Part shown: piece by piece, positions 24,403 through 49,773 of the stretch | Numbering within the stretch: the first letter of the stretch is position 1 | How the letters are laid out: every line of letters starts with the position of its first letter | Source: a bacterium | GTDB lineage: Bacteria > Patescibacteriota > UBA1384 > 2-12-FULL-50-11 | Length of the DNA: 54,301 bases | Direction: 5' to 3' | Assembly: GCA_021463485.1 (NCBI GenBank) | Contig: JAJTYJ010000004.1 | Location: 1 to 54,301, forward strand | Translations under genes and position numbers: made by a program | The notes under the pieces: model-generated | The model's input: the letters and a program-made list of their open reading frames with translations, nothing else | Databases searched by the model: none | Told to the model about the DNA's origin: nothing

Positions 24403-24541
24403 GGGGGCGTAAGGGTTCGACAGAGAGGGTAAGAGCGGTGTCTGAGCGTGGTAGCTCGAGTTGGGAAAATGCCTAAACAAAAACCAACGACAATCGTGTT
24501 TCTCTTTTTGGAACCGGGTTCAATTCCCGGCGCCTCCACCA
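24403..24541 (+). ncRNA. ssrA: tmRNA-like gene with a complete tRNA-like domain but only 139 nt long
   Basis: GGGGGCG pairs with CGCCTCC, including a G3:U pair, followed by ACCA. GGGTTCGAC D-analogue. T-arm CCGGG-TTCAATT-CCCGG. Helix-2-like AGAGAGG(24422-28)/TTTCTCT(24499-505). Confidence 0.7.
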
Positions 24542-24581
24542 ATCTTTGCCTTTGGCGCCGGGGATCACACAGTTACGGCGT

Positions 24582-24602
24582 ATTCCCGGCGCCTCCACCA
24601 AT
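24582..24602 (+). repeat. direct repeat of the tmRNA 3' end (att-like)
   Basis: ATTCCCGGCGCCTCCACCAAT is identical to 24523-24543. Confidence 0.85.
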
Positions 24603-24627
24603 ATCCTCGGCGAGTTTATCTCGCTTT

Positions 24628-44690: not shown

Positions 44691-45749
44691 TTACAGCAGG
44701 TGTTCTCTTCCCTGCTCCTGCAATTGTTCTACAATTTTTTTAACGTCTTGTACACTCCCCTTCTCGCAGATCAGAATGACGTCGTCCGTGTCGATAACAA
44801 CAATGTCTTTTACTCCTACTGTTACGATTAGTTTGTTCCCACCCATTACTAAGGTATTACTTGTTTTATCTGAGATACTATCCCCTATCACAACTTCGGT
44901 ACTTTTCCCCTGTTCTGAGAGAATTTCGTGTAGCGTTGCCCAATTGCCGATATCGCTCCAATCCATATCGACCGGAATCACTGCTAAATTAGAAAGCTTC
45001 TCCGAAATCGCTTTATCGATCGGCTCAGATGGAACACTGTTATATAACTCGACAGTCGGGTCTTCGATGTATTCGCCAACAGTTCGCAATATCTCCGGAG
45101 CAAGCTGCTCGTAATACTCGATCATTTTGGCGCCGTTAAATAGATAGTAGCCGCCGTTCCATAAGTACTCACCGCTCGTCACGAACTCTTCAGCTGTTGC
45201 CTGGTTAGGTTTCTCATGAAACGATTCGACATGGAAGATCGCTCGTTTCTGAATCGATTCAAGCTTGTCGCCCATTTTGATATACCCAAGTCCGGTATTC
45301 GGTTCGGTCGGTCGAACTCCAATAGTAACCACGTATTCTGGATGTTTTTCGATAAACGAGAAAACTGCCTTGGTTGCTTCTGCGAAGACTTTCGGCTTGC
45401 CGACGTAATGATCGGCTGGTAATAAGCCAAATAAGACGGCTTCGGGATCTTCCTTTAATATACTTAGGGTCGCCAATGCTGTTGCCGGTGCAGTGTTTCG
45501 TCCAACTGGTTCGGTAATAACATGAGCAGCTAAAATCTCCGGCAGCTGTTCGATAACCAACTCTTTATACTGCTCGCCGGTCACCACCCAAACTTGTTCT
45601 GGGTCGATGATGCCGCGAATACGATCGTAGGTTTGTTGTAGTAGCGTTCGTTCTCCAATTAATTTCTGGAACTGTTTTGGTGTAGATTTTCGGCTAAGTG
45701 GCCAGAGTCGTGTTCCGGTTCCACCAGCCATAATTACTGCGTGTCGCAT
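44691..45749 (-). CDS. mannose-1-phosphate guanylyltransferase (GDP-mannose pyrophosphorylase)
   Basis: MAGGTGTRLWPLSR nucleotidyltransferase motif. 352 aa with no C-terminal isomerase domain. Confidence 0.8.
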   Translation of the reverse strand: MRHAVIMAGGTGTRLWPLSRKSTPKQFQKLIGERTLLQQTYDRIRGIIDPEQVWVVTGEQYKELVIEQLPEILAAHVITEPVGRNTAPATALATLSILKEDPEAVLFGLLPADHYVGKPKVFAEATKAVFSFIEKHPEYVVTIGVRPTEPNTGLGYIKMGDKLESIQKRAIFHVESFHEKPNQATAEEFVTSGEYLWNGGYYLFNGAKMIEYYEQLAPEILRTVGEYIEDPTVELYNSVPSEPIDKAISEKLSNLAVIPVDMDWSDIGNWATLHEILSEQGKSTEVVIGDSISDKTSNTLVMGGNKLIVTVGVKDIVVIDTDDVILICEKGSVQDVKKIVEQLQEQGREHLL

Positions 45750-45776
45750 TGGTGAATCGTACCAAGAAGATCCCCG

Positions 45777-46484
45777 TTACTCAACGTAGTCGATCCCGGC
45801 AGCGCTAAGCGATTCGATTAGCTCTTTCGGTAGTTTGGCGTGGTAGCAATCTGTGTTTGGTAGACAAAGCTCGGTTGCGTGAAGAAACTGACGGCTGATA
45901 TGTAATTTTTTTGCGAGCGTGTCGGTCGATTTTTCGCCGTAAAGCTCATCGCCGATAATCGGATGTCCGATCGCCTTTAGGTGAACGCGGATTTGATGAG
46001 TTCTACCAGTTATCGGATGCGCCTGCACTAAACTACACCGTAACGAATCGGTACCGCCGATAGCGATTCGCTCGTAATCGGTAATCGCCGCTCGAGCGCG
46101 CTGGTCGATTAGCCAGGCAACGGCTTGGCGATCGTTTTTATTATCGCGCACCAACGGAAGTTCGATCGTTCCGTTTTGCGGACATTCCCCTATCACCAAT
46201 GCCAAGTAAGTTTTTTTAACGGCCCTCCCCTGCCAGAGCTGTTTCAAGTTTTGTTGTGACGTTGGGTTTTTTGCCCAAATAATAACGCCTGATGTGTCGG
46301 TATCAAGCCTGTGGACTACGCCGTATCGACTTTCCGGCTCCCAACCGTCAGTAGATATTCTTTTGGTTTGTAGTAGCCAATCCAGTAATGTTTTTTGCTT
46401 TGATGGCGGCTCTACCGCCATATCAGCCGGCTTGTTTATCACAAAGTAGTCGTTAGTTTCAGCGATAATCTCTGGTTGATTCAT
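45777..46484 (-). CDS. RluA-family pseudouridine synthase
   Basis: HRLDTDTSGVIIWAK catalytic-Asp motif. No S4 domain. Confidence 0.85.
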   Translation of the reverse strand: MNQPEIIAETNDYFVINKPADMAVEPPSKQKTLLDWLLQTKRISTDGWEPESRYGVVHRLDTDTSGVIIWAKNPTSQQNLKQLWQGRAVKKTYLALVIGECPQNGTIELPLVRDNKNDRQAVAWLIDQRARAAITDYERIAIGGTDSLRCSLVQAHPITGRTHQIRVHLKAIGHPIIGDELYGEKSTDTLAKKLHISRQFLHATELCLPNTDCYHAKLPKELIESLSAAGIDYVE

Positions 46485-46497
46485 AGTGTTAGTGTAT

Positions 46498-46757
46498 AAA
46501 AAAAGACCCCCTCACGCACCAAACAGGAGGGCGGTATTGGGGGCTCGGGCGCCAGGGCCCGATCGGATTACCGTTCGACGACGAACGCTTACCGCGTGAG
46601 ACGCGGGGGGACCGTATCGGCTTGTGAGACGCTTGGTGGCCTCTACCGACAGGGTGGTTGTCGTCACCTTTCCAGGTACGGTTGCGCTCCTGAAAGGAGC
46701 AGCTGCACCGCGACTGTGGGTCGCGGCTCGTCTCCGGTCTCGTTGCCTTTGACGAGG
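46498..46757 (-). ncRNA. about 260-nt G+C-rich structured RNA gene, family unresolved
   Basis: Own promoter and U7 terminator. Hairpins CCGCGAC-CCACA-GTCGCGG, ACCU-GGAA-AGGU, CCGCG-UCUCA-CGCGG and CGUUCG-UCGU-CGAACG. A spot count on line 46561 gives 38/60 G+C. Confidence 0.55.
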
Positions 46758-46763
46758 TACGAA

Positions 46764-46792
46764 TATTTTGAATGATCGGTAAATTATTGTCA
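46764..46792 (-). promoter_or_regulatory. sigma70-like promoter of the G+C-rich RNA
   Basis: Minus strand reads TTGACA(46792-87), 17-nt spacer, CAAAAT(46769-64). Confidence 0.55.
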
Positions 46793-46839
46793 AGAGGCCG
46801 ACTTGGAGAGAACTACGAAAAGCATTAGACTAACCCTCG

Positions 46840-49773
46840 ATGAGCGAAAACCGTTTTACAAAAGAGTTGCGTAAACTTAACACTGCTCAACGACAAGCTG
46901 TTGAAGCGATCGAAGGTCCGGTAATGGTAGTAGCTGGGCCAGGTACGGGTAAAACACAAGTTGTCGCGCTTAGAATTGCAGCTATCTTACAGAGCACTCA
47001 GCTGTCGGCAAAAAATATTTTAGCGCTTACTTTTACTGAAGCTGGTGTCGTGGCGCTAAGAGAGCGTCTTAGTAAATATATCGGTGCTGTTTCGTATCAA
47101 GTAACGATCGCGACGTTCCACAGTTTTGCTAACGAAGTTATCGGTACATTCCCTCATATTTTTTCAACCGCTCGTACACTCACTCAACTAGATGATCTTG
47201 AGCGCCTACTACTGCTTGAGAAGATCATCAAAAAAAATCCATCAGTGAAATTACTACGTCCACTTCGAAGCGAAACTGCGCATGTTCGCGATATTGCTAG
47301 CGCGATTAGGACGGCTAAGCAGGAAGCGATCAAGGTTGATCAGATAGTAACGTACGCCCAAGCGCTCGGTCAGAAAGAAGTAAAAAGTAAAGCTGAAGCC
47401 GAACGAGTCAAAAGAACGAGCCAGATCCTGCTTGAGTTCGCAGAGATTTTAACGGAGTACCAAAAAGAGTTGGAACGTCGCTCTGTCTACGATTACGAAG
47501 ATATGATTCTACTGGTACTCTCGGCGCTACAAGAAAACGCAGAAGTTAAAGCATATTTTCAGGAGCGGTATCAATATATTTTAGTTGATGAGTATCAAGA
47601 TACTAACAACGCTCAGAATAGATTAGTTGAGTTACTCGCTGATTTTTTCGAGACACCAAACTTATTTGTTGTCGGTGACGATAAACAAGCCATCTACCGC
47701 TTCCAAGGCGCTTCAGTGACAAATATGTTGAATTTTTATCGAAGGTATCCCGATCTTACAATGATTTCACTAACTCAAAACTACCGAAGCACTCCAGAAA
47801 TTCTGGAAACAGCTCACGAATTAATTTCTTACAACAGCCAGCAACTCTCAAGACAAATCCCAGCCGTGGCTGACTCCCTACTAGCAACTGTAAACCCAGG
47901 GCCACAGCCAGATATTTTAGTAGCTACGACTCAAATTGCTGAACATTTTGTGCTCATCGATCGTCTGAACCGTTTACACAAGGGCGGAATCGCTTGGGAG
48001 GAGATGGCGGTACTTTTTCGAACTAACAGAGAAGCGAATGATTTTCGTGATGCAGCTGAGAAAGCTGGTTTGGTGGTTGCTGGTCTACAGAGTACGGATT
48101 TACTAAAAGAAAGAGAGGTTCAAGTACTAATCCAGCTACTACGAGCAATCAACGATCCGAATAACGACGTGGCAGTTGCCAGCGCGCTTCGAGCTCTTGT
48201 GGGTACAGCTGAGACACTTAATGTATTAGAGGTAATCAAAACTGCCCGTGAATCAAAAAAGAAAATAATCGCAGCTGCCCTTGAAACTACGAAACAGGGC
48301 GTGAAGAGTGTGGCTGATCGTTTTATTGATTGGCATCACCGGCAGGAGCTGCTATCTGTGCCGGAGCTTGTCGAAGAAGTGTTATATCGTGGCGGTGTCC
48401 TCGACGCTGTCCGGAAGCGGCCGCAACACTTATCGAGCCTTGAGTTAATTGCGACGCTAATTGAAAATTGCCGCGAGTTCGCCAAGCGAAACCAAACTGC
48501 GCAGCTCTCTGATTGGCTCGAATACCTTGAACTACATCGGACGTACGGTCTGTCTTTTTCGGTTAATCGATCCCGTGCTGAAACTGCGGGCGTGTTTATT
48601 AATACTGTTCACCAGGCAAAGGGACTCGAATTCGACGTTGTATTTATTCCTCATGCCACCGATCGCGTTTGGCGCGTTAAGCCGAATCGTTCTACGGTAA
48701 AAATTCCTGGTGAGCTGATCGGTGCGGCCGGTACTGATAACGATGAGTTAGAAGATATGAGACGACTGTTTTATGTGGCGATAACTCGTGCAAGAAAGCA
48801 ACTAATTATTTCGTATTCGCAAATCGGCGCTGATGGTCGCGATGAGCTTCCAAGCCAGTTAGTTAAAGAAATAGAATCGACTACTAGGTCGGAGATGCTG
48901 ACGATTAAAGAAACACAACTTAGCCGGTTCATTACTCTACAACTCTCCCCTACTCCCGACTCCTCAATCAACTCCGCCGAACTCTCTTTTATTCGGGAGC
49001 GTGTGGCTCAAGCCCCATTCTCATTCACAGCGTACTGGGACTATAAAAAATGCCCACGAACTTACTTGCTTAAACACGTTTACAAATTACCAACGCCGTT
49101 CACGCCAAGCTTGGCTTACGGCGACTCAGTCCACGCCGCTCTTGAGCGTTTTAATCGAGACTATAAGGCGTTCAAGAAATTACCAGCTAAACAAAAACTG
49201 CTCCAATATTTTAAAGAAGAGATACATAAGAGTATTCCGTACGCCAACCGAGACACTTTTCTTGAGCAGGGCATCGATGTACTAAATGAGTTTTACGACT
49301 CCCACGTATCTGTATGGGTTAGGCCGCTTGGAACTGAGTACAGTTTTAGGCCGCATCAGGTGATGTTAGAAAAGGTTTGGCTAAACGGTAAAATCGATTG
49401 CATTGAGCCGATTAACTCAACAACAAAAAATGTTCGGATTATCGACTATAAAACTGGTTCCCAATCGAGAACTGCAAACTATATCGAGGGGAAAACCCAG
49501 GATTCTGACGGTAAAATGAAAGCACAGCTAGTATTCTACGCTATGCTGTGTGAACTCGACCCACTTTTTCCGTATCAAGCAAAAGAATTCGCCATCCAAT
49601 TTATCGATGATAAAAAGACGTTTCGTTGCGAAGTTTTTCAGATTACTACTGATGAAATTAAACAAATGAAGCGAGATGTTGTAGATTCCTACAACGAGAT
49701 ACTCTCAAGAAAAGAATTTCCTATCGGTGACGAGGAGTCAGAAATCGTTCAACTGTTCCAACAATTAACTTAG
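46840..49773 (+). CDS. UvrD/PcrA-type SF1 helicase fused to a C-terminal PD-(D/E)XK (RecB/Cas4-like) nuclease
   Basis: AGPGTGKTQ Walker A, DEYQDTN, and VHQAKGLEFD motifs. C-terminal KIDCIE...IIDYKTG nuclease motif. Confidence 0.85.
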   Translation: MSENRFTKELRKLNTAQRQAVEAIEGPVMVVAGPGTGKTQVVALRIAAILQSTQLSAKNILALTFTEAGVVALRERLSKYIGAVSYQVTIATFHSFANEVIGTFPHIFSTARTLTQLDDLERLLLLEKIIKKNPSVKLLRPLRSETAHVRDIASAIRTAKQEAIKVDQIVTYAQALGQKEVKSKAEAERVKRTSQILLEFAEILTEYQKELERRSVYDYEDMILLVLSALQENAEVKAYFQERYQYILVDEYQDTNNAQNRLVELLADFFETPNLFVVGDDKQAIYRFQGASVTNMLNFYRRYPDLTMISLTQNYRSTPEILETAHELISYNSQQLSRQIPAVADSLLATVNPGPQPDILVATTQIAEHFVLIDRLNRLHKGGIAWEEMAVLFRTNREANDFRDAAEKAGLVVAGLQSTDLLKEREVQVLIQLLRAINDPNNDVAVASALRALVGTAETLNVLEVIKTARESKKKIIAAALETTKQGVKSVADRFIDWHHRQELLSVPELVEEVLYRGGVLDAVRKRPQHLSSLELIATLIENCREFAKRNQTAQLSDWLEYLELHRTYGLSFSVNRSRAETAGVFINTVHQAKGLEFDVVFIPHATDRVWRVKPNRSTVKIPGELIGAAGTDNDELEDMRRLFYVAITRARKQLIISYSQIGADGRDELPSQLVKEIESTTRSEMLTIKETQLSRFITLQLSPTPDSSINSAELSFIRERVAQAPFSFTAYWDYKKCPRTYLLKHVYKLPTPFTPSLAYGDSVHAALERFNRDYKAFKKLPAKQKLLQYFKEEIHKSIPYANRDTFLEQGIDVLNEFYDSHVSVWVRPLGTEYSFRPHQVMLEKVWLNGKIDCIEPINSTTKNVRIIDYKTGSQSRTANYIEGKTQDSDGKMKAQLVFYAMLCELDPLFPYQAKEFAIQFIDDKKTFRCEVFQITTDEIKQMKRDVVDSYNEILSRKEFPIGDEESEIVQLFQQLT

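Follow-up and report, generated by a model that had tools for sequence, protein, structure and literature searches.

What is a short, G+C-rich segment packed with potential hairpins doing between rluA and a divergently transcribed helicase gene in a genome of the Patescibacteriota? It might be an RNA gene in its own right, a leader of rluA, a small coding region, a diverged housekeeping RNA or a remnant of foreign DNA. The segment was found in the window, that is, the whole 54,301-nt stretch of DNA that was analysed, taken from an assembly (G000) of 722,001 bases in 35 contigs, which is 94% complete and has a G+C content of 47.5%. The candidate RNA gene sits within a 355-nt spacer (46485-46839) and is present as a single copy in the genome. 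Coordinates are collected in Table 1; in the table and the text, RNA position p corresponds to window coordinate 46763 - p.

Table 1. Features of the candidate RNA gene and its neighbours (window coordinates).
Feature	Position	Strand	Remarks
rluA, RluA-type pseudouridine synthase, 235 aa	45777..46484	-	Downstream neighbour; PF00849, 106 bits
-10 box of rluA, TACACT	46491..46496	-	-12 to -7 from the A of ATG; outside the RNA, marks its 3' boundary
Predicted transcript, ~255-263 nt	46498..46760	-	From promoter and terminator geometry
Intrinsic terminator	46498..46544	-	C5/G5 outer stem, inner stem, UC, U7 (46504-46498)
Hairpin H8 (RNA 201-218), UCGGGC-CCUGGC-GCCCGA	46545..46562	-	Pair probability 1.00
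Hairpin H7 (RNA 176-191), CGUUCG-UCGU-CGAACG	46572..46587	-	Pair probability 0.81; followed by second CGGUAA
Hairpin H6 (RNA 157-171), CCGCG-UCUCA-CGCGG	46592..46606	-	Pair probability 0.98; followed by first CGGUAA
Domain H5 (RNA 108-152), long stem plus inner hairpin with two registers	46611..46655	-	Outer stem 0.99
Hairpin H4 (RNA 83-101), GNRA tetraloop GGAA cap	46662..46680	-	Pair probability 0.98
Hairpin H3 (RNA 60-79), GCUCC-UUUCA-GGAGC	46684..46703	-	Pair probability 0.99; in consensus fold
Hairpin H2 (RNA 37-55), CCGCGAC/GUCGCGG stem, loop CCACA	46708..46726	-	Pair probability 1.00
-10 hexamer of RNA promoter, CAAAAT	46765..46770	-	CAGAAT in G001; 17-nt spacer
-35 hexamer of RNA promoter, TTGACA	46788..46793	-	Same in G001
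UvrD-type helicase with C-terminal PD-(D/E)XK nuclease, 977 aa	46840..49773	+	Divergent neighbour; PF00580, PF13361, PF12705

Promoter, Terminator, and Predicted Transcript

A preliminary description of the segment had proposed a minus-strand promoter, TTGACA-17-CAAAAT, and a C5/G5 stem with a U7 tail as terminator, and both were recovered. The promoter lies at 46793-46765 and matches the consensus at 10 of 12 positions; in a 1.8-kb region, five promoter-like sites were counted, versus 1.5 ± 1.2 in shuffled sequences. In the terminator, the outer stem is formed by CCCCC (46543-46539) and GGGGG (46511-46507), and a folding energy of -18.0 kcal/mol (z -2.29) was computed for the 51-nt piece; a simple terminator scan missed it because its loop is larger than the 8-nt limit of the scan. 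Judging from these signals, transcription would start at G46760 or A46758 and end within the U tract, giving an RNA composed of 34% C, 29% G, 19% A, and 18% U.

On the opposite strand, a promoter-like site of the helicase gene (TTGACG-16-AATGAT, 46749-46776, plus strand) is arranged back to back with the RNA promoter and overlaps it, and thus both may compete for RNA polymerase. Four RNA-labelled sequencing runs (X14, X16, X18, and X20) cover 45700-47500 with single contigs of 13-66 kb whose depth is flat across the genes and the spacer; these contigs are uninformative on the start, end, strand or level of a transcript, and were used purely as strain variants.

Base Composition

The contrast in G+C content noted in the preliminary description holds, with values of 0.63-0.64 in 150-nt intervals versus 0.39-0.55 alongside. 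The ~260-nt candidate as a whole has 64% G+C, versus the genome mean given above; its 200-nt peak is 0.66, and only 0.09% of the 200-nt intervals of the genome reach 0.64. Among 174 ORF-free segments of the genome (at least 120 nt long and not covered by any open frame of 130 aa), the candidate ties for the highest 120-nt G+C content (0.68). When ten other G+C-rich segments of this kind were searched against Rfam, five contained tRNA or 16S genes (eight tRNAs and one 16S), indicating that a peak of this kind is often the sign of a structured RNA gene in this genome.

In the remaining five, Rfam found nothing at E<=0.1, and three of these segments touch contig ends. They are L158 (C12:185300-185700), L159 (C20:700-1191), L162 (C4:1500-2211), L164 (C23:800-2200), and L166 (C1:115800-116450), and may be other unclassified RNAs or small genes.

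Predicted Fold

The minimum free energy of the whole RNA was computed as -108.1 kcal/mol (z -2.49), a value equalled by 2 of 200 shuffles. The partition function describes a string of eight local hairpins, seven of them with pair probabilities of at least 0.98 and the other, H7, with 0.81. For the 23-nt piece with H2, the folding energy is -13.9 kcal/mol (z -5.13; 0 of 200 shuffles equally good). The H5 piece reaches -17 kcal/mol with z -3.13, and its two inner registers are predicted at probabilities of 0.51 and 0.49. A long-range interaction of RNA positions 29-34, with either 160-165 or 132-137, may also be possible. H6 belongs to an 18-nt direct repeat shared with 46624-46641. Two sequence details noted earlier were located exactly, namely the GNRA-capped ACCU-GGAA-AGGU hairpin, at 46677-46666, and the two CGGUAA repeats, at 46594-46589 and 46573-46568.

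Coding Potential

The preliminary description mentioned a 93-aa minus-strand frame as the only ORF. This frame exists (46512..46793), but it is not the sole one, as a 59-aa ORF occurs on the plus strand (46596..46775). The accompanying view that the 93-aa frame does not code for a protein was borne out by the failure to find either a Pfam family or a homologue, and by 1-nt indels in strains. Thus, the possibility that the segment encodes a small protein, be it this Arg/Ala/Thr-rich product or a shorter one, has in its favour that the frame is open, and against it that several open frames are to be expected at such a base composition; the candidate, with a G+C content of about 64%, has three or more. 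The TTG start codon coincides with the opening TTG of the -35 hexamer, and so lies upstream of the presumed transcript start. No Pfam family matched the 93-aa product, and no homologue was found among approximately 5.8 billion proteins. In strain contigs, the variants listed include single-nucleotide insertions following 46530 and 46708, as well as the loss of one nucleotide at 46605, all of which shift the frame. A coding function is therefore close to negligible in probability.

Known RNA Classes

The RNA could not be assigned to a family when it was first described, and a search with the 4227 models of Rfam 15 agrees, giving no match at the gathering score. Nor was any match obtained at E<=10 with lax filters over the 701-nt region 46300-47000. 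RNase P RNA was rejected, as the genome has its own copy at C23:49335-49691 (195 bits, RF00010) and the candidate gives no match; the same applies to tmRNA, of which a full copy is present at C1:112-492 (118 bits, RF00023). No stop codon in the candidate is preceded by Ala-Ala-type codons, as would be expected of a tmRNA tag frame.

Several regulatory classes were considered as well. A sponge of the CsrB/RsmZ type does not fit, with a single GGA in a hairpin loop and no CsrA (PF02599) found in the genome; Hfq was not found either. A TIGR guide-RNA array was discarded because tandem repeats do not occur in the candidate and the Nop-domain PF01798 was not found in the genome. The substrate motif of RluA is a UUNNAAA loop, and this loop is absent from the candidate, so that mimicry of an RluA substrate was also rejected. 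A search for antisense or paralogous partners in the rest of the genome returned none, the longest matches being 13 nt, equal to those of 20 shuffles.

Neither SRP RNA model (RF00169 or RF01854) gave a match anywhere in the genome, or in any of 61 genomes of the class; in 14 control genomes, RF00169 matched 12 and RF01854 matched seven. The Ffh M domain (PF02978) had no match in the genome, and the best match of the SRP54 GTPase domain (PF00448) was 20.9 bits, below the cut-off, so that neither Ffh nor FtsY was found. Among 41 genomes of the class, PF00448 retrieved P-loop fragments only, with weak matches in 19; two matches nominally above the cut-off cover no more than positions 3-43 and 3-69 of the 196 of the model. 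With no SRP GTPase or Ffh found, an SRP RNA would be left without a protein partner, and the SRP pathway seems to be missing from the lineage. For Parcubacteria, the loss of ffh and ffs has been published before (PMC4508563).

The 6S RNA model RF00013 matched neither the candidate nor any other part of the genome. It is a weak model, matching just 5 of 14 control genomes; 6S RNA was also rejected on shape, since eight local hairpins are predicted in place of an end-to-end rod with a central bubble. The reading that the candidate is a very diverged housekeeping RNA, either an RNA polymerase-binding RNA of the 6S or Ms1 type or an SRP RNA, draws on the failure to find 6S and SRP RNAs anywhere in this genome, and the size of 260 nt, the strong sigma-70-type promoter, and the GGAA tetraloop are compatible with it. 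Set against this are, for SRP RNA, the missing Ffh M domain and the lack of an SRP54-type GTPase over the cut-off, and for 6S RNA, the negative RF00013 search and the multi-hairpin predicted fold. Overall, such an identity is highly improbable.

A second, truncated tmRNA-like gene of 139 nt was observed elsewhere in the window (24403-24541, plus strand; see also 24524-24603). RF00023 matches it at 70.9 bits, with 52 nt in place of 278 model positions, and ARAGORN does not call it. The last 20 nt at its 3' end, TTCCCGGCGCCTCCACCAAT, recur 60 nt further downstream, resembling an attachment-site scar, and the three ORFs that follow (390, 250, and 199 aa, in a stretch of 60-64% G+C) belong to no Pfam family.

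Strain Variants and Selection

A copy of the RNA is also found in G001, the one relative at species level, where 5 of 265 positions differ (1.9%). The surroundings have diverged further: 45 of 708 positions in rluA (6.4%), 80 of 1145 in the 5' part of the helicase gene (7.0%), 42 of 1059 in the next gene (4.0%), and 83 of 618 third codon positions of rluA and the helicase gene (13.4%). The difference between the RNA and the flanking third positions is significant (Fisher p = 6e-9), as is that between the RNA and all flanking coding sites (p = 0.006). In the X14 contig, which is ~95% identical, the variants listed amount to 3 of 265 positions in the RNA versus 33 of 708 in rluA (p = 0.007). The conserved block in the comparison of G000 and G001 coincides with the extent of the RNA, and purifying selection looks to be acting on a block of RNA length, although low local divergence could in principle result from recombination instead of selection.

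The substitutions are distributed in a way that spares the predicted helices. In G001, A23 is replaced by C at a position that is unpaired in the consensus fold, where the change breaks just an alternative 7-11/20-24 hairpin; G123 and C132 become A and U, which swaps a G-C pair for an A-U pair in one of the two registers of H5; C176 becomes U, turning the closing C176-G191 pair of H7 into U-G; and A194, which is unpaired, becomes C. In X14, U227 is replaced by C, so that the U227-G250 pair of the terminator becomes C-G, and a C-to-T change at 46672 (plus strand) converts the H4 loop from GGAA to GAAA, still a GNRA tetraloop. None of the seven substitutions among the variants listed (five in G001 and two in X14) breaks a helix of the consensus fold, H2 to H8 included. 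This pattern agrees with a structured RNA as modelled here, seven variants being far too few for a covariation test. Because all copies are near-identical, there is neither statistically testable covariation nor a family alignment. More diverged copies may occur in the DNA runs X6-X13 and X15, which contain 49-86% of the words of the stretch.

Distribution of the RNA and of the Helicase-rluA Slot

The collection of homologues from relatives, suggested in the preliminary description as a source of covariation, could be made by BLASTN in 60 genomes, and it yielded G001 and two matches of chance size (25 and 19 nt), from which a covariation alignment was not buildable. A covariance model of the RNA (R1) matched 2 of 41 genomes, again G000 and G001; it found nothing significant in 17 syntenic loci with filters off, and had no match in any of five named genomes. 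RluA-led scans of metagenome and genome contigs brought up no closer relative, with one locus at 95% identity and the next at 60%. As far as searched, the candidate is thus confined to one species-level cluster, and the suggestion of a housekeeping RNA, made from its size and composition, was not supported. It is missing from the same-genus genomes G002 and G003, so that this type of cell can do without it; presence in 2 of 41 genomes combined with absence from two of the same genus does not suit a housekeeping RNA.

An rluA orthologue was present in all 19 genomes of the family, and the divergent helicase gene was located in 17 of them. The spacer between the two is 41-67 nt in four (G002, G003, G005, and G006), 509 nt with an MsrA-like ORF in one (G009), and 271-793 nt and non-coding in the remaining 12, which include G000 and G001. 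A perfect TTGACA was read in 7 of 13 spacers and a strict 9-of-12 promoter in 6 of 13, and the RNAs predicted in the slot fold with z values of -2.0 to -5.1 (40 mononucleotide shuffles each). Rfam gave no match at E<=1 in the loci of 16 relatives.

The bodies of these RNAs could not be aligned, sequence being shared by three loci of genus g4 only. A second model (R2), based on the RNA of genus g4, had matches in 3 of 61 genomes, which all belong to that genus and do not include G000; the sharing of a 9-mer and an 8-mer between the RNAs of G000 and genus g4 does not exceed chance. Similarity between slot RNAs does not track that between RluA proteins: the RNA blocks of loci L019 and L021 are 88-95% identical at an RluA identity of 52%, whereas L017 and L021 share promoter and terminator alone, at an RluA identity of 78%. 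Even within one genus, slot RNA bodies can be unrelated in sequence.

The structured RNA of genus g4 that lies upstream of rluA is 264-333 nt long (L021:2196-2459, minus strand; L019:1054-1386, plus strand) and has no Rfam match. Between L019 and L021, 62 of 62 predicted pairs are kept, three of them changed on both sides, a result equalled in 55 of 500 shuffles. The spacers of L028 (G008) and L024 (G010), of 661 and 793 nt, each seem to contain two promoter-hairpin-terminator units in succession; the slot would then comprise two RNA genes in these genomes.

That the slot between helicase and rluA is a site dedicated to fast-evolving structured RNA genes throughout the family is a doubtful proposal. 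Were the slot RNAs functionally equivalent, they would form a class of RNA conserved in position and free in sequence. One possibility would then be a regulator associated with RNA polymerase or the ribosome, in a lineage where SRP, Hfq, CsrA, and a recognisable 6S RNA were not found.

The patchy occupation of the slot, empty in four genomes, holding an MsrA-like ORF in one and unrelated structured sequences in others, could also be read as a sign of non-functional G+C-rich DNA, the relic of inserted foreign DNA or of a mobile element in decay, with the promoter and the terminator as chance occurrences or leftovers. The distance of its G+C content from the genome mean points in the same direction. 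Such DNA would hardly be expected to differ by 1.9% where flanking third positions differ by 13.4%, with the conserved block equal to the RNA; moreover, the segment is a single copy with no tandem repeats, and phage and plasmid collections contain no match to it. Decayed or inserted DNA is, therefore, a very unlikely explanation, and a functional RNA gene remains the preferred one.

Relation to rluA

The RNA and rluA lie on the same strand, and the U tract ends 14 nt before the ATG of rluA. In addition, a long structured spacer upstream of rluA occurs in the 12 of 17 family genomes counted above. These observations would suit a cis-regulatory leader, in which the upstream promoter drives rluA and the hairpins together with the terminator constitute an attenuator or riboswitch-like switch.

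The start of rluA argues for a different arrangement. The gene has no Shine-Dalgarno sequence, and a -10 box is located immediately upstream of its start codon (Table 1). In the whole genome, TAnnnT was found at -15 to -5 in 26% of 462 crudely called starts versus a background of 9%, an enrichment suggesting that leaderless starts are a real class in this organism; Shine-Dalgarno-like words at -18 to -4 precede 23% of the same starts, versus 5% in the background. Among the rluA orthologues of the family, nearly all spacers read have a -10 box at a distance of 6-8 nt from the ATG, and this geometry is the same in the four genomes with the short spacer, which lack the RNA. With a leaderless -10 box of its own, rluA could do without the upstream promoter, which makes a separate gene the best reading of the RNA.

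The remaining evidence also weighs against the leader. A read-through transcript would leave the AUG of rluA internal and without a ribosome-binding site, and the four genomes just mentioned evidently run rluA, leaderless, from a spacer of 41-67 nt. Spacer bodies are unalignable between genera, unlike a ligand-sensing aptamer, and no cis-regulatory family of Rfam matches. A riboswitch or attenuator was rejected more specifically for want of a conserved sensor domain, the best result of model R1 in the 17 syntenic loci being E 0.67 at 6.5 bits; dependence of rluA on read-through is likewise not supported, given its putative own -10 box. A leader function is thus unlikely, if somewhat less so than the other alternatives to a separate RNA gene.

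Discussion

The claim that an independent RNA gene of ~260 nt occupies this spacer is supported by the signals that bracket it, by the lack of a match to any Rfam family, and by the separate -10 box of rluA. On sequence evidence, the candidate is probably (about 0.7) an independent, lineage-restricted, trans-acting structured non-coding RNA gene, and it looks like one that is selectively maintained and outside known families.

A working scheme can be outlined. RNA polymerase with a sigma-70-type factor would start at ~46760/46758 on the minus strand and transcribe eight G+C-rich local hairpins, joined by the C-rich single-stranded runs CAACCACCC and GUCCCCCC. Transcription would stop at the C5/G5 hairpin and its U7 tail, a short way ahead of the leaderless promoter from which rluA would be transcribed separately. 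The RNA may then act in trans, either as a protein-binding scaffold or decoy or by pairing of its C-rich runs with G-rich ribosome-binding sites; for the predicted RNA, these two modes of action have roughly the same probability.

Taken alone, the candidate is one more orphan sRNA candidate of bacteria. Its 260 nt have, however, changed about seven times less than synonymous-type sites nearby, and the literature search turned up no regulatory RNA specific to the Patescibacteria (CPR). Such constancy, in a genome where Hfq, CsrA, and SRP were not found, makes it a concrete candidate for studies of RNA-based regulation. The hosts are uncultured, ultra-small bacteria, for which the variable counterparts in the helicase-rluA slot provide a natural comparison set.

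Comparison With Known Systems

Terminator-type leaders and riboswitches resemble the candidate in that a structured region with an intrinsic terminator at its end immediately precedes a gene of the same strand. They differ in that the gene downstream of the candidate has a putative leaderless promoter of its own, and in that the candidate has no aptamer core shared across genera.

6S RNA (RF00013), a widespread bacterial RNA with no match in this genome, is comparable in its size range and its sigma-70-type promoter. It is built from a closing stem, a central bubble, and a terminal stem, unlike the candidate, which is moreover missing from genomes of the same genus. The large SRP RNA of the Bacillus type (RF01854) shares a length of ~260-270 nt and a GGAA-capped hairpin with the candidate, which nevertheless has no match to that model and comes from a genome where Ffh and FtsY were not found.

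RsaE/RoxS and 6C RNA are C-rich base-pairing sRNAs of Gram-positive bacteria that work without Hfq and have Rfam models. Like them, the candidate offers C-rich runs, predicted to be unpaired, to which G-rich ribosome-binding sites could anneal; these sRNAs are much shorter, and none of their Rfam models matches the candidate.

Another parallel is with the lineage-specific structured RNAs of unknown function that have been catalogued by comparative genomics (PMC2864571, PMC8632094). Those motifs rest on covariation alignments, whereas the candidate is known from near-identical copies. Like them, it has a narrow taxonomic range and no known partner, and it likewise combines an intergenic location and a G+C content high for its genome with a predicted multi-hairpin fold, a promoter of its own, and an intrinsic terminator.
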